Shown: one piece after another, positions 4,901-40,475 of the stretch
How the letters are laid out: each line of letters begins with the position of its first letter
How positions within the stretch are numbered: position 1 is the stretch's first letter
Assembly (NCBI GenBank): GCA_002778465.1
Contig: PFBV01000005.1
Coordinates: 7,534 to 71,533, forward strand
Direction: 5' to 3'
DNA length: 64,000 nt
Origin: Candidatus Magasanikbacteria bacterium CG10_big_fil_rev_8_21_14_0_10_36_32
GTDB taxonomy: Bacteria > Patescibacteriota > Patescibacteriia > Magasanikbacterales > GWA2-37-8
Position numbers and translations under genes: made by a program
The notes under the pieces: model-generated
Seen by the model: the letters and a program-made list of their open reading frames with translations, nothing else
Databases searched by the model: none
Told to the model about the DNA's origin: nothing

Positions 4901-7900
4901 TAAAAATATCTGTACACATGATGGAGGATCAATTAGTTTGAATCCGGAAAGTTACGTTTTACATAATGATACCAGTGAATTATCCGATGATTTTTATTTA
5001 ACGATTAAACCGGATACTGTTGGAGGAGCGTGGTCTGACGAAACGTGGTATCAAGTTATTTTGAAATCAGATATCAGAGCGGAAGCTGTGGCGGCCGGAT
5101 CTTTAATGGCTACTCGTCCGTGCGGTTCCGGAACATCTTATTGTTTTATTTTTAAAACAGATTCAACAGATTGCCGTTTGAAAGAAGTGGTGGTCACGCC
5201 GTTAGATTATTGGACAGGTGTATTGGAACGTCCGATACAATATCGAAAAGTTAAGGATAATGCCGATGATCCGGGAGTGGAATTTTGGTATCGCGGTAAT
5301 GGTTTATCTGAACAGAAATGTGTTTGGATGAATATGGATAGTTATAGTTGGAATTGGGGAGTAAGCAGTGAAAATTATGCCAGTATTTATTTTGCCAATC
5401 AAAATCAAGCCCAAGTGTCTGCTTTGGCTAATACTGTGGCCGTCGGTTTAGCTGATGATGCGGTGCGAGTTAGAGCGACTGCGAGCAAAGGAGCGTTTAC
5501 TGTTCCGCCACCGCCTTCAATTGATATTTCTGATGGTTTAGTCGGTTGGTGGAATTTTGATGATGATGGTGCAAAAGTTGTAGATAATAGTGGAAACTAT
5601 CATGATGGAACTCCGCAAAGTGGCGTAACTTATATATCACCAGGAAAAATAGGTACAGCGCTTAATTTAAATGGTTCTGCCGCAGTGATATTAGACAATC
5701 CAACAGTTGGTTTTCCAAGTGGTATGGATTCTCGTACAATTTGCGCTTGGGGCAGACCAACTGATACGGCGGGGGGATGGCGTTGGGTGTTTGCTTATGG
5801 AGATGGGGTGGAAGGAAGAGCAATGTTTATTGGTCAAAATGGGACATCACTAGACGGCGGCGCTTATGGCGCTGATTATGATATTATTGTTAATAATTTT
5901 TGGCAGCCAGGTGTTTGGCATCATGTTTGTTTAACTTATGACGGTGATGCGCAGGTGGCCAATCTTTATACCGATGGCGCTTGGAATACCAGTATGACTT
6001 TGGAATGGAAATTAAAACTGAATAGAGCTTATATTGGCGCGCAAGTACATGTTTCTCCAAATGAATTTTGGAAAGGCGCGATTGATGATGTCAGAATATA
6101 TGATAAAGCATTATCTGCAGGGGAGGTGGCGGCTGTATACAATAATTTAAGCGCGGCTCCAACACCCACAGTCACTTCACCGGAAAGCAAAACAGGTGAA
6201 GGTTTGTTGCATATTGATTTATCACAACCGAAAGTTCTTGATTATTGGCCAAAATGTTTGTCTGCTTGCACCAATGCTGAAATCGGCGCGAAGTTTAATA
6301 CTATCATGGCTAATTATAATTTAAGCGCGGTAAAATTATATAAATGTTCAGATGAAAATTGTCTCAGTAAAGAAGATATTACAAGTGGAATTAATCCATT
6401 GTTTAAATTAAGCGACCGCCGATATTTGGAAATGCCTTTAATAAGCGGGGAGTTGGAAAAAAATACTATTTATCAGATTGTTTTGTCAGCCAGTGGAACC
6501 AGTACATCAGACGGGGTGAATCAGTTGTGGTCCGGCGCCAGCACAACCAATGATGTAATTTTAAGTAAACCATATCAACAAGAGTTTACTTGGCGGTTTC
6601 GAACCAAACAGGAAAAATGTCAGCCGAGCAAAGTCAATATTTTACCGCCATCATATGTGGCCAGTTATATCAAAGAGAAAGCTGTTTATACAGCGGAAGC
6701 TTTCACTTCCCCTGATGATTGTAATCCAAATGGACAACGTTTAAATCCTTGGTTGTTAAATTGGAATTGGACAAATTCAAGTAATGCTGTTGCCACTATC
6801 CAAACTTTTGTTACTAAGGGACACAATAATTTATGTACGGCAAAATGTTTGAAAAAAGGAAGTGATATTTTGTTTGGATCGTCGGTTATTGAACCGATTT
6901 GTGGCAATGGAATTGTGGAAGCTGGCGAAGATTGTGATGTACCTGAAAAAATTACAGGAGTTTCCGCTTGTGGTTTGAATTGTTTATATTTAGGTAATAC
7001 TTCTTCTACTTGTGGTAATGGCATAATAGAAACAAATTTAGGAGAAGAGTGTGATTTGGCGGTTTCTCAAGGTTGCAGTTCCAATTGTTTAAATATGGGT
7101 TCTAACCAGTACACCGGAGCTGAGGAAATCGGTGCGTCAATATGTGGCAATAACCAAATTGGTTTTGGTGAAGATTGTGATATTGGAGTGAAGGGGGATA
7201 GATTAGTAGTAACATCATCATTATATTGTTCGGAAAAGTGTCTTCATTTGGGAACGCCTTTGTCGGCAAAATGGTGTTATGATAATGTTGCTACTTATGG
7301 TGGGTTTAGTTTGTCGGAATTTACAACTGCTTGCCAAAAAGCCATTAGCCAATGTGGTGATGGTGTAGTAAGTCCAAATGAAGAGTGTGATGCGGGTATT
7401 TATGCTTCGTCTACTTGTTCAACAAATTGTTTATTATTATCCAATTGTACGGTGGGTATGGAAGGTTGTACAACTGAAGGTCAGTTGGCTGGTTCTTCAC
7501 TCATGTATTCCGTCCCGTCAGTTTGCGGTGACGCAATTCAAGGAATCGGTGAAGCAATTGGTTGTGAACAAGGTTTTGTAATTTCACATACTTTTAATAA
7601 CCCTTGGGTTTTAGCAACCGGAGTTGGCGATGGACCTACTATCGGTTTGCCTCCAACTCAACAGACGACCATTACCGGTCAAGCTACTGCTTTCAGTGTT
7701 AGCGGTGAAGGAAAATTTATCATACCTTGCGGTTATCACAGTGATTCAGAATGTAATGCCGGTGATGCCAGTGGCAGTTTGGGGGTGGCTCAAAATACCT
7801 GTTGCTATTCACGTCCGCAAATAATTAAAACTTATCCGGTTATGTCCCCATTGCCAGTTAATGTTTGTCCGAATACTTATATTGAAATTAAATTTAATAA

Positions 7901-10900
7901 AAAAATTGACCCGTCTACTTTATATGGTAATTTAATTTTGGCTCAGGGTCGAACCGCTGCTTCTTGTTTATCTGGTGAAGAAAATGTGACCGGTAATATT
8001 ATTACTACAATAGTCTCGGCTAATTCTGATATTTGGTACAAGAAAGTATGGAAGCAGATTGTTTGGTTTGTGAAAAATTTATTTCAATCAAATACCGCTT
8101 CAGCTTTTAAAACAGATTTAAATTCGGTTTCTTGGTGCGCCGGCAAAGAATCTATAACTACTGAAGTTGTTTATGATCCGTCTGTTTCTTCAGATTCTAA
8201 CGATGTTACTTCCACTGTTAAAATAATTTTAAAGAAAGCTTTGGCGACCAGTACTGATTATGCTGTAATTTTGCGTCCAGGTATTAAAGATTCACGCGGT
8301 GTCAGTATTGGTGTATTGTCCGGAGACATAAATCGCAATTGGAAATTTATTACAGGAGAACAAATTTGTGAATTAACAGATTTATCAATTAATCCGGCGA
8401 CTCATTTATTCCAAAAAGCCGGCAACTCCATTAATTTGGAAGTAGTATCTAAAACCGGTAACGGTCAGCAAATTCAACCGATAAACGGTTATCGTTGGGA
8501 ATATGTATGGGAACCAAAAATTAATGACTATGTAACCCTGACTGTTACTACCAGCACGCCTAATGTAATTACTTCAAAAAATAGGAATGGTGAAATTGAT
8601 GTGGTGGCTGAAAGTAAATTTACTGAAAATATATTTACCGCAACATCTCCGACTTTGCGCGGCAGTTCACATATAACAATATTTTTATGTGAAAATCCTT
8701 GGCCGTCAGTTGCTGATTTGCCGTGGCATGATACGGCGTGGGATTTTTCAACTTATTATTGTCGTGATAGTGGCAGCGTGGGCACGGCTGATGATTTGCC
8801 AAATCTCTCGGCTTCTGTTGAAGATAGTCTGACCGCTCCATACAGACGAAGATATCTGATGACTGATAAAGATTTTACCGATGCCATTGGCATTATGATA
8901 TTCCCAAATCCGGAACATTTAACTGTTCAAGATTGGTATAAAATGAAAAATTTTAAAGGCACATTTACTTCATTAAATATAGATGGTTACTCAGCTATTA
9001 CAGATGGAAATAATTATTATGTTGATGCACTCAATTTAAGTTCATCCGAAAATATTTATACTAATATTTATTTATTTAGTATTAATAGTAATGCTGAACA
9101 GAATATGCGGCGTGTTTTTGAACAGATGATTACTAATTTAAAATTTAATAATGATTTTTTAAATGAAAAATATTGTGGTTCAGATTTTGTAGACGAATCA
9201 GTTAATTATAGTATGCCGTGTCAAAATGATTTGGATTGCTGGACGCAAGTTGATTTGTATAATCAAACCAATCCTTTAACGCCGAGTACTGATTATTTAT
9301 GTTTGAATCAAAAAGATAAAATTCAGAGAAATTATCAGCGTTTGAAAGATGTGAGAACAATAATTGATGTTTTGTCTAATTATAATCAAAATCAACAGAT
9401 TATTAATTCATCAACTCTTGGATTTTATCCATTGATGAAAGATAATACTTATTTAAGCGGACAAGCTTTGAGTGTTTGGCCGGCTGCTTGGACAGGTTTA
9501 GGCAGTGCGCTTGGAGCGTCTATGCCGTCAGATCCGATTAATAAATTAGCTAAAGCTGGCACTTGTTTCCAAAAAAATATTTCAAGCCAATTTACCGCTT
9601 GTACAAAAGATGAAAATTGCGCGGTTCCAGTGACCGATGGAATTGTTAGTCAATGGTTGTCAGATCAAAATCCGACAGACCAGAAAGGTATTAGTGATGC
9701 GCAGCTGGAAGGAGATGTGTCTTATTCAGCCGGAAAAGGACATGGCGATGCTTTTGATATTGCCGGCGATTCAGTCAGTAAATTAATTATTCCTCACAAG
9801 GATAATTATAATACAGAATCATTTACTTTATCTACTTGGATTTATCCACGCAAGAAAAATACCGCTGTTTTATTCCAAAAAGGTGGTTTAAGCAACGGTG
9901 GAGCAAGTTTGGGAGGTTGGGGATTGGAATATAGCGATTGGAGTTACTATGGAGATAGTTTGAGTAGTAAAGTGTTTAATAATGGAACGGTGCGATTTGC
10001 AATTTATCCTTCAGATAGCAGTGATTATAAATATGTGGCTGCTGATTCCGGAGTGCCGTTGGCGCTTAATCAGTGGCATCATTTGGCGGCTGTTTATGAT
10101 AGTACTGATATGACAAATAGAAAGGTTCGTTTATATATTGATGGTTTACCGGCCAGCGCGATAGAACCGGATGGTTGGATTATGAAAGCAGAAAACAAAG
10201 CGGGAGTGATAAGTGTGGTGAATAATGCGGATTTATCAAATAATGGTTTAAATATTGAAGTTGGTCAGAATTTTAATGGTTTGATTGATAATACGATATT
10301 TTACAATAAAGCATTGAATTTGGATGAAGTTAATAATTTATACAGAGGAGTTTGTATTATTCATGACAGTTTAACCGGTTGGAGTGTTGAAGACAGAAGA
10401 TTCAGTTTTTCTTGTAATCCGTTATCTTATGCTTACCGTTATATTTATGATACTGTTAATCGCGATTTTGATTTAAGACTAAATATAGAAGAAGATGGAA
10501 TTAATCCGGCTAATTGGCCTATATTCATTTCAGAGTTTGGTATTGATTCCGGTTCGCAAGTGTCAATGGATAGTGTTTGTCAGGCGGATGACGAAGTAGC
10601 TTCGCCGTACAGTTTAGTTTGTGGTGATGGAGTTTTGGGAGGAACGGAAGTTTGTGATCCACCGGGAAAAGTAAATTATGATACCAGTTTATGTCCTGTT
10701 TCAGCTACTAAAAAAATATGCAATAGTTCATGTCAGTGGGGATTGGCTACTACGATTACTTGCGCAGCAGCCACTGGGGCGCAATGTGGTGACGGTAAAA
10801 TTCAAGCCGTAACAGGTGAAGTTTGTGATGACGGTTTATTAAACGGCACTAATGAAAGGTGTAACACAACTTGTACAGGGATAGTTCATAATTGTGGTGA

Positions 10901-12590
10901 TTATTTAGTTCAGACAGATGAATTGTGTGATCCGACATATGGCAGGAAAATTGGTTCAATTGCACAAACCGGTTGGTGTGTCGGCGGTCAATATTTTACC
11001 GATTTAATTCCTGTAGCGTGTAGCTTAGATAGTCAATGTCCTTACACTGGAAAATGCAATAAAACACCTGATGATAAATATGGATTATTGAAAAATAATT
11101 CGTGTAATTGGGATTGTAAAAGTTATGGACCATATTGTGGGGATGGACAAGTTCAAGAGGAGTGGGGGGAAAATTGTGAAACAAATGAAAGTTGTTCCAC
11201 TGTGGGAGTATCTGGTTCAAAAAAATGTAATACAGGTTGCCGTTATGATAATGCGGGAGTAGAAGGGATAATAAGTTATTGGGGCTTTGATTATTATCGC
11301 GCTTCTGATGGTCTTATACCAGATGATAATTATATGTTTATCGGTACTTGCAAGACGGGAGTGGATTGTCCTTCTCTGACTTCTGGAATTTATAATGTGA
11401 ACAGAGCATTTAAATTCAATGGCGCGCAATATGTTCAAATCAAAAATTATTCTTCTTCGTTGGCAACTAAAACAATATATCCGCAATTTACCGTGGAAGC
11501 ATGGGTAAAACCTGATTCTGATAATACCTATCATGCCAGAGTTTTTGAAGAAGGTGGGCAATATAACAATGGCGGTTATGGTTTGGAATTTAGAACCTAT
11601 GATGATATTAATATTAATAATTTTAGATGTACAACTTGGGATGTTGGAAATATACTTTCTAAAGTTGATTCTAATCCGGTCAATACAAATGAATGGCATC
11701 ATGTTGTTTGTACTTTTAACGGGGCAACATACGGCATAGATAAAATAAAAGGTATTTTATCTATTTATGTTGATGGTGTTTTGCAGGAAGCCACTTCTAC
11801 TGCGGTTATGGCAAAAACCACTTATCCGTTGTGTTTTGGCAGTAAATGTGTCAAAACATCTTTGGGTGGTTATACTCGTTCTGCAATCAATGCATTTAAA
11901 GGTTTAATAGATAATGTGGCTTATTATTCTCGCGCATTACCATTGGAAGAAATTCAGGAACATTATGCCGCAGTAAACGGTTGGTATTGTACAGCCGGTG
12001 GCAAAACACCGGAATATTCAACTTGTGGTAATAAAGTTGTGGAAGAGGAAGAAGTTTGTGATATGGGAGATAAAAATGGTGCCGCATGCATTCCTCAATA
12101 TCCTTATACCAGCTGTACCTATTGTTCAGCTGATTGTAAAAGTGTAATTACGGTTGATACTATGTGTGGTAATGGAGTTTGGGATTATGCTGGAGGAGAA
12201 GAGTGTGATTTTAGTAATATTCTGACTGATTTTGTTAGAAATTATACAACATATCTTTCAGACAGATGTTTTGAGTGTCAATCTAATTGTACTTTTAAAA
12301 CTCCGCCTATTTTAAATACACACAACAGTCCATGTGATTTACACGGGTTAGGTTATTGCGGTGATAATATTAAAAATGGATGGGAATATTGCGATGGTAC
12401 TGATTGGGGTTCTTATTTTGAAACCTCTGCGTGTTATGAAGATGGTTATTGGGGTTATTTGACTTGCAATTCTTGTTTAAGTTTAGATTGTATACATGGA
12501 TATTGTGGTGACGGAATTATACAATCTCCGCCCGAAGAGTGTGATGGTGCATGGAATTGTTCCGTCAATTGCCATTTCTTTTCATTATAA
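1995..12590 (+). CDS. Giant (3531 aa) cell-surface protein. Signal peptide, TrbC/VirB2-like pilin domain, about four IPT/TIG repeats, three LamG (concanavalin A-like) domains and several clusters of CGDG...EECD cysteine-rich repeats.
   Basis: Single uninterrupted ORF. The N-terminal hydrophobic signal is MLSSDKRKFFWSLLLTVICGGLWLGVG. The pilin-like motif YAGFTWMTAGGNEDKIATAKKILFNAAIGLVIILSAF follows. IPT/TIG-like repeats are seen as ITNIDPMAGATGTTYVTISGRYFG, LQPKSGAPYTTNVTLTGINFGG, IFEITPNKGAKGQYITIIGKNFG and ICKIDPVSGP...ELIGEHL. LamG signatures are DDVRIYDKALSAGEVAAVYNN, IDNTIFYNKALNLDEVNNLY and IDNVAYYSRALPLEEIQEHY. The repeated CGNGIVEAGEDCD / CGDGVVSPNEECD / CGDGKIQAVTGEVCDDG / CGDGIIQSPPEECD motifs resemble the Myxococcus-type cysteine-rich repeat. 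Confidence 0.8.
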   Translation: MLSSDKRKFFWSLLLTVICGGLWLGVGFTLAQTTPDLGLAQVGEGIGLPATDIRLIVARIIRAALGLLGIVALGLTLYAGFTWMTAGGNEDKIATAKKILFNAAIGLVIILSAFAIVSFVISNLISATTGLPAHCSNGVIDAGEEGVDCGGECPACGGGTTPYGPSNVFYVKQKPSGFTCIRNYYPLVVFNHPVNLSTLENNLIVRRQDNQEQAVGTWQFASETIQNIVKFVPEGDCGSPPNDCLEASTLYELYFANASAIKSQTNLTLNCSLDATCATSEFTTGESVDRQPPTVIISSPADSSNLEKGTTVPVNVSYWDDNGIQNISLFDNEYYVDSVQVSNCETTGSVTINWPTASAVMTTHTLETIGFDWSAATGTDSVVVYLRPSHCFNNIQDVSLGEIGIDCGGECGLCGGSACSSDGECASGYCEIPPGVCVNKMIITNIDPMAGATGTTYVTISGRYFGENGGHVYFTKIGGGWAEAPIVSCGSGIDNWTQSQLIVSVPNNAADGAIKVETATTPLHDSFVDVTDGSDNWGGIYYFDVNNQQRPGLCNLQPKSGAPYTTNVTLTGINFGGTENRVVFGAGTGAFNALIKNWSNALINAKVPGMAPGTVGVKVIAMQGGGEEVSSNGMAFTVTEDINLDTPIIFEITPNKGAKGQYITIIGKNFGSNKGKVYFKLNGDQSGILGDFNFPDECGSNFWTDTKIIVKFPQAAIEIPGEYSVQVQRSTDNALSPIGAYFQAQTGSPGPGICKIDPVSGPVPFAEGKYMELIGEHLIGAQPYFWRAIASSSTIEGRLPASVETWSENNIFALPPAMALSGPVVVYRASDSKMSNSINFTVFNCLENNNTCTQAENKCCLQGTDAGMCIPKNEMCDGETRSTGYMWRFGTRDLPVVPRVIERCNSDTELALNIPSPSPSTIWNTGGVTDHVNVCRTALVTVVFNTAINPTTVDLNNVQIFKCVSSTINKNICTHDGGSISLNPESYVLHNDTSELSDDFYLTIKPDTVGGAWSDETWYQVILKSDIRAEAVAAGSLMATRPCGSGTSYCFIFKTDSTDCRLKEVVVTPLDYWTGVLERPIQYRKVKDNADDPGVEFWYRGNGLSEQKCVWMNMDSYSWNWGVSSENYASIYFANQNQAQVSALANTVAVGLADDAVRVRATASKGAFTVPPPPSIDISDGLVGWWNFDDDGAKVVDNSGNYHDGTPQSGVTYISPGKIGTALNLNGSAAVILDNPTVGFPSGMDSRTICAWGRPTDTAGGWRWVFAYGDGVEGRAMFIGQNGTSLDGGAYGADYDIIVNNFWQPGVWHHVCLTYDGDAQVANLYTDGAWNTSMTLEWKLKLNRAYIGAQVHVSPNEFWKGAIDDVRIYDKALSAGEVAAVYNNLSAAPTPTVTSPESKTGEGLLHIDLSQPKVLDYWPKCLSACTNAEIGAKFNTIMANYNLSAVKLYKCSDENCLSKEDITSGINPLFKLSDRRYLEMPLISGELEKNTIYQIVLSASGTSTSDGVNQLWSGASTTNDVILSKPYQQEFTWRFRTKQEKCQPSKVNILPPSYVASYIKEKAVYTAEAFTSPDDCNPNGQRLNPWLLNWNWTNSSNAVATIQTFVTKGHNNLCTAKCLKKGSDILFGSSVIEPICGNGIVEAGEDCDVPEKITGVSACGLNCLYLGNTSSTCGNGIIETNLGEECDLAVSQGCSSNCLNMGSNQYTGAEEIGASICGNNQIGFGEDCDIGVKGDRLVVTSSLYCSEKCLHLGTPLSAKWCYDNVATYGGFSLSEFTTACQKAISQCGDGVVSPNEECDAGIYASSTCSTNCLLLSNCTVGMEGCTTEGQLAGSSLMYSVPSVCGDAIQGIGEAIGCEQGFVISHTFNNPWVLATGVGDGPTIGLPPTQQTTITGQATAFSVSGEGKFIIPCGYHSDSECNAGDASGSLGVAQNTCCYSRPQIIKTYPVMSPLPVNVCPNTYIEIKFNKKIDPSTLYGNLILAQGRTAASCLSGEENVTGNIITTIVSANSDIWYKKVWKQIVWFVKNLFQSNTASAFKTDLNSVSWCAGKESITTEVVYDPSVSSDSNDVTSTVKIILKKALATSTDYAVILRPGIKDSRGVSIGVLSGDINRNWKFITGEQICELTDLSINPATHLFQKAGNSINLEVVSKTGNGQQIQPINGYRWEYVWEPKINDYVTLTVTTSTPNVITSKNRNGEIDVVAESKFTENIFTATSPTLRGSSHITIFLCENPWPSVADLPWHDTAWDFSTYYCRDSGSVGTADDLPNLSASVEDSLTAPYRRRYLMTDKDFTDAIGIMIFPNPEHLTVQDWYKMKNFKGTFTSLNIDGYSAITDGNNYYVDALNLSSSENIYTNIYLFSINSNAEQNMRRVFEQMITNLKFNNDFLNEKYCGSDFVDESVNYSMPCQNDLDCWTQVDLYNQTNPLTPSTDYLCLNQKDKIQRNYQRLKDVRTIIDVLSNYNQNQQIINSSTLGFYPLMKDNTYLSGQALSVWPAAWTGLGSALGASMPSDPINKLAKAGTCFQKNISSQFTACTKDENCAVPVTDGIVSQWLSDQNPTDQKGISDAQLEGDVSYSAGKGHGDAFDIAGDSVSKLIIPHKDNYNTESFTLSTWIYPRKKNTAVLFQKGGLSNGGASLGGWGLEYSDWSYYGDSLSSKVFNNGTVRFAIYPSDSSDYKYVAADSGVPLALNQWHHLAAVYDSTDMTNRKVRLYIDGLPASAIEPDGWIMKAENKAGVISVVNNADLSNNGLNIEVGQNFNGLIDNTIFYNKALNLDEVNNLYRGVCIIHDSLTGWSVEDRRFSFSCNPLSYAYRYIYDTVNRDFDLRLNIEEDGINPANWPIFISEFGIDSGSQVSMDSVCQADDEVASPYSLVCGDGVLGGTEVCDPPGKVNYDTSLCPVSATKKICNSSCQWGLATTITCAAATGAQCGDGKIQAVTGEVCDDGLLNGTNERCNTTCTGIVHNCGDYLVQTDELCDPTYGRKIGSIAQTGWCVGGQYFTDLIPVACSLDSQCPYTGKCNKTPDDKYGLLKNNSCNWDCKSYGPYCGDGQVQEEWGENCETNESCSTVGVSGSKKCNTGCRYDNAGVEGIISYWGFDYYRASDGLIPDDNYMFIGTCKTGVDCPSLTSGIYNVNRAFKFNGAQYVQIKNYSSSLATKTIYPQFTVEAWVKPDSDNTYHARVFEEGGQYNNGGYGLEFRTYDDININNFRCTTWDVGNILSKVDSNPVNTNEWHHVVCTFNGATYGIDKIKGILSIYVDGVLQEATSTAVMAKTTYPLCFGSKCVKTSLGGYTRSAINAFKGLIDNVAYYSRALPLEEIQEHYAAVNGWYCTAGGKTPEYSTCGNKVVEEEEVCDMGDKNGAACIPQYPYTSCTYCSADCKSVITVDTMCGNGVWDYAGGEECDFSNILTDFVRNYTTYLSDRCFECQSNCTFKTPPILNTHNSPCDLHGLGYCGDNIKNGWEYCDGTDWGSYFETSACYEDGYWGYLTCNSCLSLDCIHGYCGDGIIQSPPEECDGAWNCSVNCHFFSL
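2127..2370 (+). other. TrbC/VirB2 pilin-like two-helix domain inside the giant protein. It is paralogous to nt 7-240 of the first ORF.
   Basis: The two segments align directly: GLPATDIRLIVARIIRAALGLLGIVALGLTLYAGFTWMTAGGNEDKIATAKKILFNAAIGLVIILSAFAIVSF versus GLPATDIRLIIARIIRVALSLIGIVVLVIIIYGGYLWMTAGGNEDQIGKAKKVLFNAVIGLVIILSAYAIVSF. Confidence 0.55.
3310..4525 (+). other. Block of about four IPT/TIG-like beta-sandwich repeats within the giant protein.
   Basis: A repeating pattern is visible: I..I.P..G..G..VTI.G.NFG at each repeat start, and KVYF / RVVF strands further on. Confidence 0.5.
5545..6150 (+). other. LamG / concanavalin A-like lectin domain 1.
   Basis: GNYHDGTPQSGVTY...LNLNGSAAV...WHHVCLTYDG...DDVRIYDKALSAGEVAAVYNN is the canonical LamG_3 C-terminal strand motif. 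Confidence 0.6.
6890..7450 (+). repeat. Cluster of tandem cysteine-rich repeats (C-x-x-C-G-[DN]-G-[IV]...EECD). Similar clusters occur at about 10600-11230 and 12140-12585.
   Basis: The cluster contains ICGNGIVEAGEDCD, CGNGIIETNLGEECD, ICGNNQIGFGEDCD and CGDGVVSPNEECD; the later clusters repeat the same theme. Confidence 0.55.
9750..10350 (+). other. LamG / concanavalin A-like lectin domain 2.
   Basis: FDIAGDSVSKLIIPHKDNYNTESFTLSTWIYPRKKNTAVLFQKG...WHHLAAVYDS...IDNTIFYNKALNLDEVNNLY. Confidence 0.6.
11280..11970 (+). other. LamG / concanavalin A-like lectin domain 3.
   Basis: AFKFNGAQYVQIKNYSS...FTVEAWVKPDSD...WHHVVCTFNG...IDNVAYYSRALPLEEIQEHYAAVNG. Confidence 0.6.
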
Positions 12591-32091: not shown

Positions 32092-32162
32092 TCTTGCCTT
32101 TTTTTTTCGCTTATGTTAGAATAATTACGCTCTTTTTTGAGCTTAATTTTTATATCAAAAAC

Positions 32163-34904
32163 ATGTCATTTCTTAATAAAATTTTTGGTGATCCGAATAT
32201 AAAAGTAATTAAAGAAATTCAGCCGATTGTTGATAAAATTAATTCGCTGGAACCGGAAATTCAGAAGTTGAGTTTGGAAGGTCTAAAAAATAAAACTGAA
32301 GAGTTTAAAGACCGTTTGATAAAAGGTGAGTCTTTGGACGATATTTTACCTGAAGCCTTTGCGGTTGTCAGGGAAACTTCAAAACGCGTAACAGGTATGC
32401 GTCATTTTGATGTTCAGTTGATTGGCGGTGTGGTTTTACACCGTGGACAAATTTCAGAAATGCGTACTGGTGAGGGAAAAACTTTGGTAGCGACTTTACC
32501 TACTTATTTAAACGCCTTGTCAGGCAAAGGTGTTCATTTGGTAACAGTTAATGATTATTTGGCAAAACGTGATGCTGTTTGGATGGGTCAAATTTATGAT
32601 GCTCTAGGTTTGTCTATCGGTATTATTCAGCAACAGTTGACTTCTTATAAATATTCTGCCACCGCCAAAGCCAATGTTGGTGAAGGAAGTGAAACCGACA
32701 AAGAGAGAGATGTTATTGGTATGTTTAAAATTGAACATGATTATTTGTTGCCTTGTTCGCGTAAAGAAGCTTATCAGTGTGATATTACTTATGGCACGAA
32801 TAATGAATTTGGGTTTGATTATTTGCGTGACAATATGGTTCAAAATTTGGACGATATGTCTCAACGTGAATTGAATTTTACCATTGTTGATGAAGTTGAT
32901 TCTATTTTGATTGATGAAGCTCGGACACCTTTGATTATTTCCGCGCCGGCAGAAAAAGCAACAGACATATATTATAAATTTGCCGAATTGGTTGAACGCT
33001 TAAAAGAAAATGAAGATTATAATGTTGATGAAAAAATGCGTTCGGCGACTTTAACCGATGCTGGTATTAAGAAAATGGAACAGTGGTTGGGAGTAGATAA
33101 TATTTATGCCGAAGGAGGTGTTGGCACTGTTCATCATGTTGAGTCGGCTTTGAGAGCTAAAGTTCTTTTTAAGCGTGATCGCGATTATGTGGTAGAAAAC
33201 GGCGAAGTTATTATTGTTGATGAATTTACCGGAAGAAAGATGATTGGCCGACGTTATAGTGAAGGTTTACATCAGGCGATTGAGGCAAAAGAGGGTGTAG
33301 AAATTCAACGTGAAAGTCAGACAATGGCTACTGTTACCTTTCAAAATTATTTTAGAATGTACAAAAAAATATCAGGCATGACCGGTACGGCGGTGACTGA
33401 AGCCGAAGAATTTGGGAAAATTTATAATTTGGAAGTTGTAGTTATTCCAACTAATAAAAAAATTTGTCGTTTAGACCATTCAGATCGCATTTATCGAACC
33501 GAGGAGGCAAAATATCGGGCGATTGCTAAACATGTTAAAGAATTACAAGATAAAGGACAGCCGGTTTTAATTGGTACTATTTCAGTGGATAAAAATGAAG
33601 CTTTGAGTTTATTTTTAGAACAAGAGGGTATTAAACATGAGATTTTGAATGCTAAAAATCATGAGAGGGAAGGCGAAATTGTGGCACAGGCTGGCCGTGC
33701 AGGAGCGGTTACTTTAGCTACCAATATGGCAGGTCGTGGTGTGGATATTATTTTGGGCGGAAATCCACCAGATAAAGAATTGTCGGAAAAAGTTAAAACA
33801 AATGGCGGTTTATTCGTTATCGGCACTGAACGACACGAGAGTCGTCGTATTGATAATCAATTACGAGGCCGTGCTGGACGTCAGGGTGATCCAGGTGAAA
33901 CTCAATTTTATCTTTCCACCGAAGATGATTTAATGAGAATTTTTGCCGGTGATCGAATTCGGGCAGTTATGCAGACATTACGTGTGCCGGAAGATATGCC
34001 GATTGAACAAAAAACCATTACTCGCATTATTGAATCGGCGCAGAAAAAAGTGGAAGGTTTTCATTTTGATACTCGTAAACATTTATTGGATTATGATGAT
34101 GTGTTAAATCGTCATCGCGAAGTGGTTTATGGAAAACGTCGGCAAATTTTGGAAATTTATGATATAGAAAAAAGATTATTGGTTGAACCAAATGCTGCTA
34201 AACCGGAAAAATCATTGCGTCAGTTGATTTTAGATATGGTGGAAGCGGAAATTGAACAGGTGGTATCTTTTCATACCAATACAGAAGATGCAAGTGAGTG
34301 GAATTTAAAAGAAATTGGAGAAACAATAACTACAATTTTTCCGTTAACAAATGCGGAAAAAATAGAGATAACAAATTTTGGACAAAAAAGCGCATTAAAA
34401 TTGGAATCAATTGAACATCGAACAAAAATTATTGAATATTTGGTGCAATTAGCTGGTCAAAAATATGAAGAAATGTTGGTTAAAGCAACTAATCAGCCCG
34501 AGTTAATGGTAGAAATAGAAAAACAGTTATTGCTTCGTTCGGTGGATAATTTATGGATTGAACATTTAGTGGCAATTGATTATTTGCGTACAGGCATTGG
34601 TTTGCGTGGGTATGGACAGCGTGATCCGTTAGTTGAATACAAAAAAGAAACTTATCGGATGTTTAATGAATTGTTGAATTTGATACAGAAGGAAGTTGTG
34701 TATTCTGTTTTCAAAATTAGTTATGGAATTCAAATGGCACCAAGCGTTATGCAAAAAGGTAATTTGGTTTTGACTGGCGCGGAGAAAGAACAATCGCCGG
34801 TCTCTTCTGGAAAAATTAAAGATGCTGAAGGTAAAACCATTGGCCGCAATGATCCATGTCTGTGCGGATCAGGCAAGAAATTTAAGAAATGTTGTGGATC
34901 ATAA
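32163..34904 (+). CDS. secA: Preprotein translocase ATPase SecA with a C-terminal zinc-binding tail.
   Basis: Begins MSFLNKIFGDPN. DEAD-like motor motifs are present. The C-terminal motif is CLCGSGKKFKKCCG. The start was taken at the internal ATG after the upstream terminator. Confidence 0.9.
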   Translation: MSFLNKIFGDPNIKVIKEIQPIVDKINSLEPEIQKLSLEGLKNKTEEFKDRLIKGESLDDILPEAFAVVRETSKRVTGMRHFDVQLIGGVVLHRGQISEMRTGEGKTLVATLPTYLNALSGKGVHLVTVNDYLAKRDAVWMGQIYDALGLSIGIIQQQLTSYKYSATAKANVGEGSETDKERDVIGMFKIEHDYLLPCSRKEAYQCDITYGTNNEFGFDYLRDNMVQNLDDMSQRELNFTIVDEVDSILIDEARTPLIISAPAEKATDIYYKFAELVERLKENEDYNVDEKMRSATLTDAGIKKMEQWLGVDNIYAEGGVGTVHHVESALRAKVLFKRDRDYVVENGEVIIVDEFTGRKMIGRRYSEGLHQAIEAKEGVEIQRESQTMATVTFQNYFRMYKKISGMTGTAVTEAEEFGKIYNLEVVVIPTNKKICRLDHSDRIYRTEEAKYRAIAKHVKELQDKGQPVLIGTISVDKNEALSLFLEQEGIKHEILNAKNHEREGEIVAQAGRAGAVTLATNMAGRGVDIILGGNPPDKELSEKVKTNGGLFVIGTERHESRRIDNQLRGRAGRQGDPGETQFYLSTEDDLMRIFAGDRIRAVMQTLRVPEDMPIEQKTITRIIESAQKKVEGFHFDTRKHLLDYDDVLNRHREVVYGKRRQILEIYDIEKRLLVEPNAAKPEKSLRQLILDMVEAEIEQVVSFHTNTEDASEWNLKEIGETITTIFPLTNAEKIEITNFGQKSALKLESIEHRTKIIEYLVQLAGQKYEEMLVKATNQPELMVEIEKQLLLRSVDNLWIEHLVAIDYLRTGIGLRGYGQRDPLVEYKKETYRMFNELLNLIQKEVVYSVFKISYGIQMAPSVMQKGNLVLTGAEKEQSPVSSGKIKDAEGKTIGRNDPCLCGSGKKFKKCCGS

Positions 34905-36856: not shown

Positions 36857-37427
36857 ATGAAAATAATACTAGGTTCACAATCAAAGGGTCGGCGGGGAGT
36901 TTTAGAAAAAATGGGATACGAATTTGAAGTAATGCCGTCTAATATTGATGAAGAAGAAATCAGATTAGAAAATCCGCAGGAATTAACTTTGGCTTTGTCT
37001 TACGTAAAAACTAACGCTTTATTGTCAAAAATTAAAGAACCGGCAATTTTAATCACTTCTGATCAAGTAGTCTGTTGGAATGGAACGGCTTCGTGAAAAA
37101 CCGGAAAACGAAGCTCAGGCAAGAGAATATTTATCTCGGGCAGTTGAATATCCTTTGGAAACGGTTACGGCTGTAGTGATTACTAATACTGTCACAGGTA
37201 AACAAGAGGAAGGAATAGATGTTGCAAAAGTTTATTTTTTAGATATTCCGGAAGAAACAATTGAAAAATTAATTAAAGAAGGACATATTTTTCATCAGGC
37301 TGGAGGATTTTCTATTGATGACCCGTTAGTGAGAGATTTTGTCAAACAAATTGAAGGGGAGCCGGAAAGTATTATTGGTTTGCCGAAAAAATTAACTGAA
37401 AGATTGATAGGGGAAGTTAAAAAGTGA
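36857..37427 (+). pseudogene. maf: Maf-family nucleoside triphosphate pyrophosphatase, split by a +1 frameshift near 37075-37085.
   Basis: The N-terminal half MKIILGSQSKGRRGVLEKMGYEFEVMPSNIDEE...ITSDQVVCWNG ends at TGA. The C-terminal half ERLREKPENEAQAREYL...IGLPKKL continues in the next frame. Together they form one Maf-length protein. Confidence 0.6.
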
Positions 37428-37507: not shown

Positions 37508-39553
37508 ATGGCTCATAAAAAAACATTTATTAAAACCATAACCAAAACTCAGGCTCGCTGGAGAGTGGCCGGTATTGCGATTTTGGCTATTGTTTGTTTG
37601 TTTTTAGTTTTACCAAATTATGTTAATGTTGGATTAAATTGGGTTAACAATCAGGTTAATTTAGGTTTACCATTATTACCGGAGTCAAGTTTTAATTTGG
37701 GTTTGGATTTGCAAGGAGGAGCTCATTTGGTTTATAAGGCTGATGTGATCAAAGTCGCGCCAGATCAGCGTGCAGCTTCAGTTGAAGGTGTCCGAGATGT
37801 GATTGAAAGAAGAGTTCGTGGCGGTTTGGGTGTGGCTGAACCTTTGGTTCAAACCACTAAATTTGGAGAAGAACACAGAGTGATTGTGGAGTTGCCAGGT
37901 GTTACCAATGTTTCTGATGCTATTCAAATGATTGGTGAAACTCCTGTTTTGGAATTTAAAGAAGAAAATAATGATCCACCAAGAGAGTTAACTGTTACGG
38001 AGAAGAAAGATTTAGATGAATTTAATCGATTGGCTGATAAAAAAATTAGAGAAGCGAAAAATGCTTTATACAGAATGAATTTTGAAGAAGCGGTTGGGCA
38101 ATATTCTGAAGATGAAGCCAGTAAAAAAGAATCAGGTAAAATCGGATTTATTACAGAAACAGGCTATCCAGAAATGTATAGCTGGGCTAAAACAGCTGCT
38201 ATTGGTGATGTTTCCGGTGTTATTAAAACAGCCGACGGTTATAGTATAGTTAAAAAATTATCTGAACGAACCGGAGAAAAATCAATCCAAGCATCACATT
38301 TGTTAATTTGTTATAGAGGCGCTGAACGTTGTGATGCAACTTATACCAAATCGTCTGCCAAAGAAAAAATTGAAGAACTTCAAAAACAGATAAATAAAGA
38401 TAATTTTGTTGAATTAACTAAACAATATTCTACCGAACCGGGCGCCCAAGAAGGTGGCGGTGATTTAGGTTTATTTAAAAAAGGAGAAATGGTGCCGGCG
38501 TTTGAAAATGCCGTTTGGGATTTGCCAATGAACACTGTTTCGGAAGTGATTGAAACAGAATTTGGTTATCATTTAGCTATTAAAATAGGAGAAGAACAGA
38601 AAATGGAGTATGAGTTGGCAAAAATTTTTGTTCCTACAAAAAGTGTAACAGACATTATTCCTCCAGTTGGTGAATGGAAGATTACCGGTTTAGACGGGTC
38701 ATTGTTAAAACGAGCTGAGGTTGTACAGAATAGTCAAATTGGAGAAATTCAAGTTAGCTTGACCTTTAACGATGAAGGCGCAAAATTATTTGGCGATATT
38801 ACCAGACGCAATATTGATAAGCCTGTGGCTATTTTCTTGGATGGTGAAGCAATCAGTATACCGAAAGTCAACGAACCAATCCTGGATGGTAGTGCGGTGA
38901 TTACCGGTGGATTTACTTGGGATGAAGCTAAATTATTAGCGCAGCGTTTAAATTCTGGTGCATTGCCTGTTCCTGTTGAATTAATTAGTCAACAGAAAAT
39001 TGATGCCGCTTTGGGTGTTGATTCGTTGACTACCAGTTTTAAGGCCGGATTGATTGGCTTATTACTGGTTATTATATTTATGGTATTCTATTATCGTTTA
39101 CCGGGTTTAATTTCAGTCTTAGCTTTATTAATTTACGCGGCTATCACATTAGCCATCTTTAAGGTTATTGGTGTTACCTTGACCCTTTCTGGAATTGCAG
39201 GTTTTATACTATCTGTTGGTATGGCAGTAGACGCGAATGTGTTGGTATTTGAACGTTTAAAAGAAGAATTAAAACAGGGTAAAAGCTTAAAACCGGCAAT
39301 GGAAGAAGCTTTTGTTCGCGCTTGGACTTCTATTCGTGACAGTAATGTTACCACATTAATCAGTTGTGCATTTTTAATTTGGATGGACATTGGTTTTGTT
39401 CAGGGTTTTGCCGTTACGTTGGCAATTGGTATTTTAGTTAGTATGTTTACTGCTATTATTGTCACTCGAAATTTAATGCGTGTATTTTTTAGCTGTTTCA
39501 AAGACAAAGCTAATTGGTTGTTTTTGGGAAGCTCGTCTAATAAAGAACAATAA
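37508..39553 (+). CDS. secD: Protein translocase subunit SecD with a parvulin-type (PpiC) peptidyl-prolyl isomerase domain inserted in the periplasmic region.
   Basis: SecD N-terminus LNLGLDLQGGAHLVY. Parvulin signature IQASHLLICY...GGGDLGLFKKGEMVPAFENAVWDLPMNTVSEVIETEFGYHLAIKI. C-terminal SecD/F transmembrane bundle. Confidence 0.8.
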   Translation: MAHKKTFIKTITKTQARWRVAGIAILAIVCLFLVLPNYVNVGLNWVNNQVNLGLPLLPESSFNLGLDLQGGAHLVYKADVIKVAPDQRAASVEGVRDVIERRVRGGLGVAEPLVQTTKFGEEHRVIVELPGVTNVSDAIQMIGETPVLEFKEENNDPPRELTVTEKKDLDEFNRLADKKIREAKNALYRMNFEEAVGQYSEDEASKKESGKIGFITETGYPEMYSWAKTAAIGDVSGVIKTADGYSIVKKLSERTGEKSIQASHLLICYRGAERCDATYTKSSAKEKIEELQKQINKDNFVELTKQYSTEPGAQEGGGDLGLFKKGEMVPAFENAVWDLPMNTVSEVIETEFGYHLAIKIGEEQKMEYELAKIFVPTKSVTDIIPPVGEWKITGLDGSLLKRAEVVQNSQIGEIQVSLTFNDEGAKLFGDITRRNIDKPVAIFLDGEAISIPKVNEPILDGSAVITGGFTWDEAKLLAQRLNSGALPVPVELISQQKIDAALGVDSLTTSFKAGLIGLLLVIIFMVFYYRLPGLISVLALLIYAAITLAIFKVIGVTLTLSGIAGFILSVGMAVDANVLVFERLKEELKQGKSLKPAMEEAFVRAWTSIRDSNVTTLISCAFLIWMDIGFVQGFAVTLAIGILVSMFTAIIVTRNLMRVFFSCFKDKANWLFLGSSSNKEQ

Positions 39554-39563
39554 TTTTTTTCAT

Positions 39564-40475
39564 ATGAATATACCGTTCATCAAATATTCAAAATTTTTTC
39601 TTAGTTTTAGCATTGTGGTAACCGTAGTAGCCTTGATGTCTTTATTTTTTTGGGGATTAAAACCAGGGATTGATTTTACCGGCGGTTCGTTAATGGAATT
39701 GAATTTTGCCAATAATCGTCCGGAAACATCAGAAGTACAACAGGTTTTAGGAGAAATGGATTATAGAAGTGTCACGATTCAAAAAACCGGCGAAAAGGGG
39801 TTGATTATTCGTACTGCTTTTTTAACGGAAGATAAACACCAAGAAGTCTTACAAAATATTAAGGATAGTTTCAATCAAGACGATAACATGGTGGTTGAAA
39901 GCAGTTTCCAGACCATTGGACCGTCGGTGAGTCAGCAATTGCGTCAGCGTTCTCTTTGGGCAATAATTTTGGTCAGTTTGGGTATTATTTTTTATATTGC
40001 TTATGCTTTTAGAAAAGTTTCTAAGCCGGTAGCCAGCTGGAAATATGGCGCGTTAGCCATAGTGGCTATGATTCATGATGTTTTGTTAGTCGTAGGTGTA
40101 TTTGCTTTTTTAGGCAAGTTTGCGGGAGTGGAAGTTGATGTTGCTTTTGTTGTAGCTATGTTGACAGTTATCGGTTATTCAATCAATGATACCATTGTTG
40201 TTTATGATCGCATTCGAGAAAATTTACTTCACCACACATCGTGGAGTTTTGCTGATTTGGTTAATTATGGTTTAAATCAAACCATGATGCGTTCAATTAA
40301 CACCACCCTAACCACTTTATTGCCATTGTTGGCTTTATATTTCTTCGGAGGTGCAACTATCCATAATTTTGTATTAGCGTTATTGATTGGTATCGCTAGT
40401 GGTGCTTATTCTTCCATATTTATTGCCAGCCCATTGTTAGTTTTGGTAGAAAAATGGCAAGCACGAAGAGCTTAA
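39564..40475 (+). CDS. secF: Protein translocase subunit SecF.
   Basis: Begins MNIPFIKYSKFF. IDFTGGSLMEL motif and six transmembrane helices. The start was taken at the internal ATG. Confidence 0.8.
   Translation: MNIPFIKYSKFFLSFSIVVTVVALMSLFFWGLKPGIDFTGGSLMELNFANNRPETSEVQQVLGEMDYRSVTIQKTGEKGLIIRTAFLTEDKHQEVLQNIKDSFNQDDNMVVESSFQTIGPSVSQQLRQRSLWAIILVSLGIIFYIAYAFRKVSKPVASWKYGALAIVAMIHDVLLVVGVFAFLGKFAGVEVDVAFVVAMLTVIGYSINDTIVVYDRIRENLLHHTSWSFADLVNYGLNQTMMRSINTTLTTLLPLLALYFFGGATIHNFVLALLIGIASGAYSSIFIASPLLVLVEKWQARRA

Follow-up and report, generated by a model that had tools for sequence, protein, structure and literature searches.

A candidate export-linked foldase: a tandem parvulin insertion within the SecD motor subunit of Patescibacteria

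The stretch of DNA analysed here (the window; 64,000 nt) comes from Candidatus Magasanikbacteria bacterium CG10_big_fil_rev_8_21_14_0_10_36_32 and carries secD directly followed by the gene for its partner subunit, secF (Table 1). As the preliminary description of this locus had stated, the secD reading frame is uninterrupted and encodes 681 aa, and the parvulin motifs quoted there (ASHLLI, GGDLGLFKKGEMVPAFENAVWDL, and GYHLAIKI) are all present. A protein deposited at NCBI as 'SecD [Candidatus Magasanikbacteria bacterium CG10_big_fil_rev...]' is 100% identical to the product. The NCBIfam secD model TIGR01129 covers residues 64-657 with 359 bits (cut-off 244), and SecD_1st (residues 93-154), SecDF_P1_head (residues 394-488, E 1.5e-26), and SecD_SecF_C each score above their Pfam cut-offs, with a further Pfam match to Sec_GG at residues 62-79. 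The canonical SecD N-terminus and C-terminal transmembrane bundle described earlier are thus both present, and the product is a bona fide SecD. Its topology is that of SecD: TM1 comes first, a large P1 domain (base and head) follows outside the cytoplasm, and five more TM helices close the chain. TM1 (MAHKKTFIKTITKTQARWRVAGIAILAIVCLFLVLP) is preceded by a Lys/Arg-rich cytoplasmic N-terminus, which by the positive-inside rule would place everything between TM1 and TM2 outside the cell.

Table 1. Features of the secD-secF locus, in positions of the window
Feature	Position	Strand	Details
secD, with the tandem-parvulin insertion inside	37508..39553	+	681 aa; TIGR01129 and Pfam
TM1, residues about 13-40	37544..37627	+	AF2 helices 13-34 and 36-50
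P1 base, N-terminal part (GG motif and SecD_1st), residues 57-154	37676..37969	+	Pfam
Par-A, degenerate parvulin-like domain, residues about 158-257	37979..38278	+	
Par-B, canonical parvulin PPIase domain, residues 258-362	38279..38593	+	Pfam Rotamase_3 and Rotamase
Par-B predicted catalytic tetrad	H264 38297-38299; E310 38435-38437; T350 38555-38557; H355 38570-38572	+	
Par-B proline pocket			L320, M328, F332
Par-B Cys pair			C268, C275
Return strand and linker, residues 363-393	38594..38686	+	AF2 single continuous strand 353-376
P1 head subdomain, residues 394-488	38687..38971	+	Pfam
TM2-TM6 bundle, residues 490-663	38975..39496	+	Pfam SecD_SecF_C, residues 490-658
secF, SecD partner subunit	39564..40475	+	303 aa; start 10 nt past the secD stop codon

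Residue D575 (39230-39232) in TM4 aligns with the proton-path Asp D340 of Thermus thermophilus SecDF (GMAVDANVLVFERLKEE aligned against GAAVDGNVLSFERIKEE) and is invariant among 65 homologues (alignment A1). The secF product matches TIGR00966 with 298.5 bits; secF follows secD in all 19 of the 19 related loci of sufficient length, and the two genes are fused in loci L020 and L044. Judged by the invariance of D575 and the adjacency of secF, the SecDF motor is intact. The gene directly upstream of secD, maf, is split by a frameshift.

The SecD protein carries about 240 additional residues (155-393) in the connection between the base and the head of P1. Residues 57-152 align with residues 27-117 of T. 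thermophilus SecDF and residues 398-658 with its residues 163-423, so that about 245 residues stand in place of about 45 in the base-to-head link. Within the insert, the parvulin PPIase families PF00639/PF13616 of Pfam both match: Rotamase_3 at residues 245-357 in two stretches (E 8.8e-33; 113.7 bits, with the cut-off at 22.5) and Rotamase with an E of 4.4e-30. The proposal of a parvulin module inside SecD is borne out by these clearly significant profile scores, with SecD_1st lying before the module and SecDF_P1_head after it. The insert fold is predicted by AF2 with high confidence (pLDDT about 87-95). With pTM values of 0.42 (full SecD) and 0.51 (periplasmic fragment), the models do not fix how the parvulins are placed against the P1 head or the SecYEG exit. 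No other parvulin genes are found within the 64-kb window.

The second domain, Par-B, is a canonical parvulin in both profile match and fold. Its closest relatives among solved structures are PrsA PPIase domains (E 1.6e-14 to 9e-12), and Foldseek aligns it with the PPIase domain of S. aureus PrsA at a TMt of 0.81 and about 36% identity. The first domain, Par-A, corresponds to the weaker parvulin-like stretch noticed earlier, and its homology to the parvulin domain is established by profile-profile comparison (hhalign, residues 150-257 versus 255-368; probability 97.4%, E 1.4e-11, 80 columns), by the two Rotamase stretches, and by a match to the SurA P1 and P2 domains that spans both Par-A and Par-B. 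Both catalytic histidines are lost in Par-A. No N-terminal beta1/His motif is found in it, and the position of the second His is occupied by Ser here and by Asn, Val, Glu, Ala, or Tyr in homologues, but never by His. Free-standing multi-parvulin relatives, unlike Par-A, keep the His in every domain. In the AF2 model, the strand at residues 366-376 (YELAKIFV), which follows Par-B, may provide the beta1 that Par-A lacks; it bears Arg, Lys, or Ala where the parvulin His would stand. A permuted Par-A construct aligns with Par-B over 102 columns with a global score of 63.7, compared with 79 columns and 52.5 for the native-order control, which lends modest support to the completion of Par-A by this strand.

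The families of known parvulin foldases do not accommodate the fusion. The preliminary description had likened the insert to a PrsA/PpiD-like foldase, and this likeness fails at the level of the family: the insert has no flanking NC chaperone domain, the PrsA models score far below their cut-offs (NF002846, 73.6 bits versus 361; NF002827, 70.3 versus 343) with the parvulin part alone aligning, and no lipobox is present in the SecD fusion, whose N-terminus is TM1 of SecD. For PpiD, only the parvulin parts align, and the score lies far under the cut-off. SurA membership is rejected as well (NF008038, 56.5 bits versus 394), only P1-P2 (profile 189-378) being aligned. By its sequence, the insert is no more than two parvulins in tandem, and it most resembles the SurA P1-P2 pair.

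We surveyed the distribution of the fusion in the loci of 23 GTDB species representatives and in at least 120 clusters at 90% identity. The identical (100%) protein occurs on 6 contigs, the clusters are 59-100% identical to the query and all of those listed share its architecture, and 21 of the 150 best representatives at 50% identity show the same architecture and junctions. The insert lies at the same site in all 23 species representatives, which come from independent studies. Its carriers include Magasanikbacteria, Uhrbacteria, Falkowbacteria, the Parcubacteria group, and Peribacteria, and the insert-bearing form is the SecD standard across a large number of Patescibacteria lineages. The architecture, which had been called unusual, is thus unusual relative to model organisms but not within Patescibacteria. 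The records of several fusion loci carry the label 'uncultured Gammaproteobacteria', which we treat as doubtful. Of the two parts of the protein, the insert is the faster-evolving (mean column identity 0.63-0.69, versus 0.80-0.83 for the SecD core), and the divergences of the two are correlated (Pearson 0.76, 528 pairs). This co-divergence and the common site in the 23 genome loci fit one ancient, vertically inherited insertion, and we consider that it probably arose in a single event early in a Patescibacteria lineage. Searches with a profile of the insert (alignment A2) mostly retrieve free-standing multi-parvulin proteins and SurA, whose repeated domains sum in score; the named free-standing multi-parvulin matches belong to Planctomycetota, Myxococcota, and Rhodothermaceae, and the searches add nothing about the fusions themselves.

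We assessed the catalytic competence of Par-B by the presence of a His, Cys-or-Asp, Thr-or-Ser, and His tetrad together with a Leu-Met-Phe proline pocket, using residues that we take to be equivalent to those of Pin1/Par14 on the basis of our own alignment of known sequences. Both the tetrad and the pocket are found in Par-B. Among 33 diverse fusions, the tetrad is kept almost without exception (H264, 33/33; E/D310, 32/33; T/S350, 33/33; H355, 33/33), as are L320 (32/33) and F332 (33/33) of the pocket, and M328 is kept in 25/33. M328 and D319 of the GDLG motif vary in some lineages. This conservation is seen despite a whole-insert identity that falls to 25%, and the catalytic residues of Par-B are evidently under strong purifying selection. 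The most likely role of Par-B is that of an active peptidyl-prolyl cis/trans isomerase, and the most likely role of Par-A, by analogy with SurA P1, is that of a peptide-binding or scaffold domain.

Taken together, we favour, with a probability of roughly 60%, the reading that this protein is the SecD subunit of a functional, proton-driven SecDF motor, with an acquired parvulin pair acting on exported chains, in which Par-B serves as the isomerase and Par-A as the binding or scaffold domain. Because the parvulin module is tethered beside the P1 head, which captures polypeptides as they leave SecYEG, it would act as a covalently attached holdase and prolyl isomerase, holding nascent exported chains and isomerising their prolyl bonds while they are being pulled. 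Such an arrangement would provide bacteria of small genome with a foldase built into the translocon, replacing or supplementing a separate PrsA, PpiD, or SurA. The location of the pair within SecD P1 and its conservation across many Patescibacteria (CPR) lineages suggest that export is physically coupled to folding in these bacteria; of this picture, the architecture, the site of the insert, the way the catalytic residues are conserved, and the distribution are shown directly, catalysis and the choice of substrates are inferred, and the link to translocation is read here from anatomy and published analogues.

The same anatomy would also accommodate a non-catalytic role, in which both parvulins add peptide-binding surface to the P1 head and the insert serves as a holdase or grip extension that improves substrate capture and pulling without prolyl isomerisation, much as PpiD and SurA P1 do with their inactive parvulins. 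We hold this to be the less probable explanation, although one with evidence on its side. Both catalytic histidines are clearly gone from Par-A, SurA and PpiD of E. coli work as chaperones without requiring PPIase activity, and the low certainty of the predicted domain arrangement (pTM 0.42 and 0.51) suggests a flexible arm. The conserved 'catalytic' residues of Par-B could be kept for structural reasons instead. However, the tetrad and the Leu and Phe of the pocket are kept in at least 32 of the 33 fusions in an insert that otherwise diverges down to 25% identity, and their retention in Par-B and loss in Par-A, under the same structural constraints, argue that catalysis is selected in Par-B.

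An extension of the favoured reading, which we regard as unlikely, is a foldase whose cycle is coupled to energy and powered by the PMF. The parvulin pair lies at the hinge where the P1 head, swung by the PMF, meets the static P1 base, and therefore the conformational cycle of the motor could mechanically drive substrate binding, isomerisation, and release. If true, the fusion would be a PMF-powered foldase in a compartment without ATP. A further possibility is that Par-A is circularly permuted and completed by the strand after Par-B, with Par-B nested within it.

It is also quite improbable, in our estimation, that the insert is a maturation factor dedicated to one class of CPR surface proteins, such as pilins or the neighbouring genes' giant Ig/laminin-G surface proteins, rather than a general foldase. 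The window does encode large secreted or surface proteins whose N-termini resemble those of pilins (7..1956 and 1995..12590), and reduced genomes rely heavily on surface structures in the episymbiotic lifestyle. Against this, secD has no conserved linkage to surface-protein genes in the related loci, where secF is the only constant neighbour, and SecDF handles Sec substrates generally, with no sign of specificity in the insert. Finally, a chimeric assembly or a frameshift joining a parvulin gene to secD can be dismissed: the split maf upstream means that the assembly or the genome has at least one frame disruption, but homologous SecD sequence flanks the insert on both sides, so that two joined genes are impossible as its source, and the same junctions recur across independent assemblies (at least 119 other clusters, the 21 of 150 representatives, and the 23 species representatives).

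We found no description of a SecD-parvulin fusion in the literature searched, and a CPR-related paper that names both SecD and rotamase treats the two as unrelated items. The database annotation of the fusion is plain "SecD", which conceals the parvulin insert. How chains from the Sec channel are handed over to folding factors outside the cytoplasm, without ATP, is an open question, and the recent proposals of contact between SecDF and parvulins (SurA in E. coli and the PrsA-like dome in Mycoplasma) come from crosslinks, AlphaFold models, and EM at low resolution. The covalent fusion described here, being natural, ancient, and widely conserved, is independent "Rosetta stone" evidence for cooperation between SecDF and the parvulin foldases. 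It locates the foldase at the P1 base-head junction, offers a compact one-polypeptide system for testing the coupling of translocation and folding, and presents a concrete adaptation in the poorly understood biology of the CPR cell envelope.

To our knowledge, none of the solved or described SecDs carries a PPIase. In canonical SecDF (T. thermophilus, PDB 3AQP/5YHF; E. coli SecD/SecF), the two-parvulin stretch is absent, and in the T. thermophilus protein about 45 residues take its place. CPR hosts, unlike the host of SurA, are not known to possess BAM or a pathway for outer-membrane proteins that a foldase could serve. SurA (E. coli, PDB 1M5Y) and the SecD insert both contain one inactive and one active parvulin in tandem, the active one of the insert being predicted, and the SurA match spans Par-A and Par-B (NCBIfam, residues 166-357 to SurA 189-378; PDB, E 2.2e-10; Foldseek, about 240 columns). 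AlphaFold models place the P1 and P2 parvulins of SurA on the P1 head of SecDF, and SurA binds the holo-translocon (PMC9987972). The proposed SurA-SecD contact is transient, whereas the insert is covalently linked to SecD, and the N- and C-terminal chaperone core of SurA is missing from the insert. PpiD of E. coli, which is membrane-anchored and contains a parvulin, is likewise positioned at the Sec translocon for emerging chains, and PpiD-YfgM associates with SecYEG (PMC9643414), but its parvulin is inactive and lies inside a chaperone domain, it has its own TM anchor, and its partner is SecY rather than SecD.

PrsA of Firmicutes, which provides the nearest relatives of Par-B among solved structures, works on Sec substrates as an extracytoplasmic, membrane-tethered foldase, and its hosts have no outer membrane. 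It is, however, a separate lipoprotein dimer with one parvulin within an NC domain, whereas the SecD insert has two parvulins and neither a lipobox nor an NC domain. In M. pneumoniae, SecDF-SecYEG is covered by a dome built from PrsA-like PPIase lipoproteins (bioRxiv 10.1101/2025.04.25.650208; 10.1101/2024.09.05.611430). The dome (Mdp444/436/489) consists of PPIC-domain proteins that sit on SecDF at the translocon exit of a genome-reduced, wall-less host, and one of them alone is catalytically intact, so that dome and insert would share the logic of an active PPIase beside a degenerate one. The dome is a non-covalent chamber of large trimeric lipoproteins, whereas the insert is compact, has two domains, and lies within SecD itself; by analogy, it would be the natural fusion counterpart of both the SurA-SecDF contact and the PrsA-like dome of Mycoplasma.

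The secD ORF runs without interruption and contains the motifs quoted in the preliminary description, which had placed a parvulin domain inside SecD. The Pfam map and the TIGR01129 score of the 681-aa protein (359 bits over residues 64-657; this NCBIfam equivalog of SecD has its cut-off at 244) bear out this placement far beyond chance. D575 aligns with the proton-path residue D340 of Thermus thermophilus SecDF and is invariant in homologues, so the SecDF motor looks intact. Because the Lys/Arg-rich N-terminus precedes TM1, the P1 domain would lie outside the cell. A maf-like gene (36857..37427, +) located 80 nt upstream of secD is split by a frameshift at ~37080-37096 into two overlapping ORFs, and it is either a pseudogene or the site of an assembly indel. 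T4SS_pilin-like N-termini are also encoded by two neighbouring ORFs (649 aa and 3531 aa), the larger of which has TIG, Big_5 and three Laminin_G_3 domains as well; the pair resembles the giant proteins of the surface or of pili that are typical of CPR.

Features of SecD (residues) and of the window (nucleotides)
Feature	Position	Strand	Details
ORF, 649 aa	7..1956	+	
ORF, 3531 aa	1995..12590	+	
secA	32094..34904		upstream of secD
maf-like ORF 1	36857..37096	+	Maf profile positions 1-73
maf-like ORF 2	37080..37427	+	Maf profile positions 77-185
secD	37508..39553	+	681 aa
Sec_GG	residues 62-79		Pfam
SecD_1st	residues 93-154		Pfam
Par-A (first parvulin-like domain)	residues ~158-257		diverged parvulin
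Par-B (second parvulin-like domain)	residues 258-362		
Rotamase_3	residues 245-357		Pfam, E 8.8e-33, two stretches
Rotamase			Pfam, E 4.4e-30
C268	38309..38311	+	beta1 and next loop of Par-B, with C275
C275	38330..38332	+	CX6C pair with C268
SecDF_P1_head	residues 394-488		Pfam, E 1.5e-26
SecD_SecF_C	residues 490-658		Pfam
secF	start 39564		303 aa; TIGR00966, 298.5 bits; 10 nt past secD stop codon
ORF, 460 aa	40760..42142	+	285 nt downstream of secF; hydrophobic N-terminal region, no Pfam match
ORF, 851 aa	54997..57552	-	TrwB/VirD4-type type IV secretion coupling protein domains

Alignment with T. thermophilus SecDF (3AQP) pairs query residues 57-152 with 27-117 and residues 398-658 with 163-423, and these bounds on both sides indicate that the connection between P1 base and P1 head comprises ~245 residues in the query versus ~45 in Thermus. 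The insert (residues 155-393) consists of two parvulin-like domains, and the weaker parvulin-like stretch noted ahead of the canonical one is confirmed by a profile-profile match of Par-A to Par-B (probability 97.4%, E 1.4e-11, 80 columns). SurA matches cover both domains, in NCBIfam (residues 166-357 to SurA 189-378), with PDB 1m5y and over ~240 Foldseek columns. The PrsA and SurA chaperone cores are absent from the insert, and its scores against the NCBIfam profiles fall far below the family cut-offs, so the PrsA- or PpiD-like foldase proposed in the preliminary description is rejected. Because the SurA match spans both domains and the cores are absent, the insert is a bare SurA-like P1-P2 tandem, which shares the parvulin pair of SurA but not its chaperone core. 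Its closest non-SecD relatives are free-standing secreted proteins of ~280-415 aa with two or three tandem canonical parvulins (loci L018 and L019; proteins P0123, P0127 and P0284-P0300), and they are a possible source of the tandem. The few named ones come from Planctomycetota, Myxococcota and 'Deltaproteobacteria' MAGs.

Par-B residues were placed on Pin1 and Par14 by our own alignment of known sequences, which gives H264, E310, T350 and H355 as the catalytic tetrad and L320, M328 and F332 as the proline pocket. Among 33 diverse fusions (core identity 47%-86% outside the insert, insert identity 25%-70%), H264, T350 (or Ser), H355 and F332 are kept in 33/33, and E310 (or Asp) and L320 in 32/33. 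Par-A lacks the N-terminal beta1/His motif, and its second His position is never His in these fusions (Asn, Val, Glu, Ala, Tyr or Ser). Since the free-standing relatives keep the His motifs in every domain, this degeneracy is specific to the fusion. A purely non-catalytic extension of the grip on the substrate is possible but disfavoured, because the strictly conserved Par-B tetrad contrasts with the degenerate Par-A. The C268/C275 pair is invariant in 65 close homologues and co-varies in the diverse fusions (both Cys in 25/33, neither in 8/33); being extracytoplasmic, it probably forms a disulfide staple, in some lineages only.

The AF2 model of full-length SecD has a mean pLDDT of 79.9 and a pTM of 0.42, with the insert at pLDDT ~87-94, and the periplasmic part alone (residues 41-500) gives 84.7 and 0.51. 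The individual domains are thus confidently predicted, and their mutual arrangement is not fixed by the models. Long continuous strands bridge Par-A to Par-B (244-267) and Par-B to the return segment (353-376). As Par-A has no beta1 of its own, strand 366-376 was tried in that role: with residues 362-380 placed ahead of 158-257, the permuted sequence aligns with Par-B over 102 columns, beta1 included, versus 79 columns for the native-order control (global scores 63.7 and 52.5). This comparison gives modest support to a topology that is nested or permuted and has the ends of the insert adjacent, as required for a domain insertion.

An NCBI SecD entry from a Candidatus Magasanikbacteria MAG (CG10_big_fil_rev) matches the protein at 100% identity, and this sequence occurs on 6 contigs. 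SecD-domain and Rotamase Pfam sets occur together in all 120 of the best-scoring 90%-identity clusters (59-100% identical, mostly 653-711 aa), two of which (990 and 996 aa) could by their length be SecD-SecF fusions. When the insert alone was searched against 1.84 billion 50%-identity representatives, 21 of the best 150 matches were SecD-flanked, with insert identity down to ~33%. Two proteins from this search differ in layout: P0193 (781 aa) carries an additional parvulin-like segment of ~100 aa inside its first domain, and its return linker is longer; P0183 (286 aa) has a P1-head-like segment before the parvulin, not after, and may be either incomplete or differently arranged. Scanning GTDB species representatives with one peptide pattern gave at least 80 loci, a lower bound, and the insert occupies the same SecD position in 23 of the 30 examined. 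Fusion loci are titled Patescibacteria group, Parcubacteria group, Falkowbacteria, Uhrbacteria and Peribacteria. secF follows secD in 19/19 sufficiently long loci and is fused to it in two more, the Peribacteria loci L020 and L044, where SecD, insert and SecF form one ORF of ~1020-1046 aa. Eight fusion loci (L005, L010, L014, L015, L017, L021, L022 and L029) are co-assembly MAGs titled 'uncultured Gammaproteobacteria', labels that look doubtful because these loci encode the fusion type of SecD found in Patescibacteria. The gene neighbourhood of the related loci lends no support to the idea that the module serves particular surface proteins only. An assembly artefact joining two genes by sequencing error, as the preliminary description had considered, is excluded because SecD sequence flanks the insert on both sides and the architecture recurs across independent assemblies.

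Evolution has been faster in the insert than in the core (mean column identity 0.63-0.69 versus 0.80-0.83), and the pairwise identities of the two are correlated (Pearson 0.76, 528 pairs). This co-divergence and the identical insertion site, the basis of the reading, fit one ancient insertion followed by vertical inheritance.

Full-text literature searches turned up no description of a SecD-parvulin fusion. Source databases name such proteins 'protein translocase subunit SecD', although SecD and parvulin domains alike are present in the precomputed Pfam lists. SecD and parvulins are each known, as is the fact that they work together; what appears undescribed is that they are fused covalently across a lineage, that a degenerate parvulin stands in tandem with an active one, and that the insertion lies at the P1 hinge. 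It is established that the SecDF P1 head binds emerging preproteins and moves with proton flow (summarised in PMC9987972). The parvulin tandem would be tethered outside the cell at the junction of P1 base and head, with Par-A as an inactive, peptide-binding parvulin and Par-B as a catalytically intact one, and would bind exported chains and catalyse isomerisation at their prolyl bonds during exit from SecYEG. In E. coli, SurA binds the holo-translocon, and AlphaFold puts both SurA parvulins on the SecDF P1 head (PMC9987972). In M. pneumoniae, SecDF-SecYEG is covered by a dome of PrsA-like PPIC proteins, of which one is active and the rest are degenerate (bioRxiv 10.1101/2025.04.25.650208; 10.1101/2024.09.05.611430). 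In E. coli, PpiD-YfgM is located at SecYEG (PMC9643414). These three associations are non-covalent, whereas the SecD-parvulin fusion is their covalent counterpart and provides independent evolutionary support for all three models.
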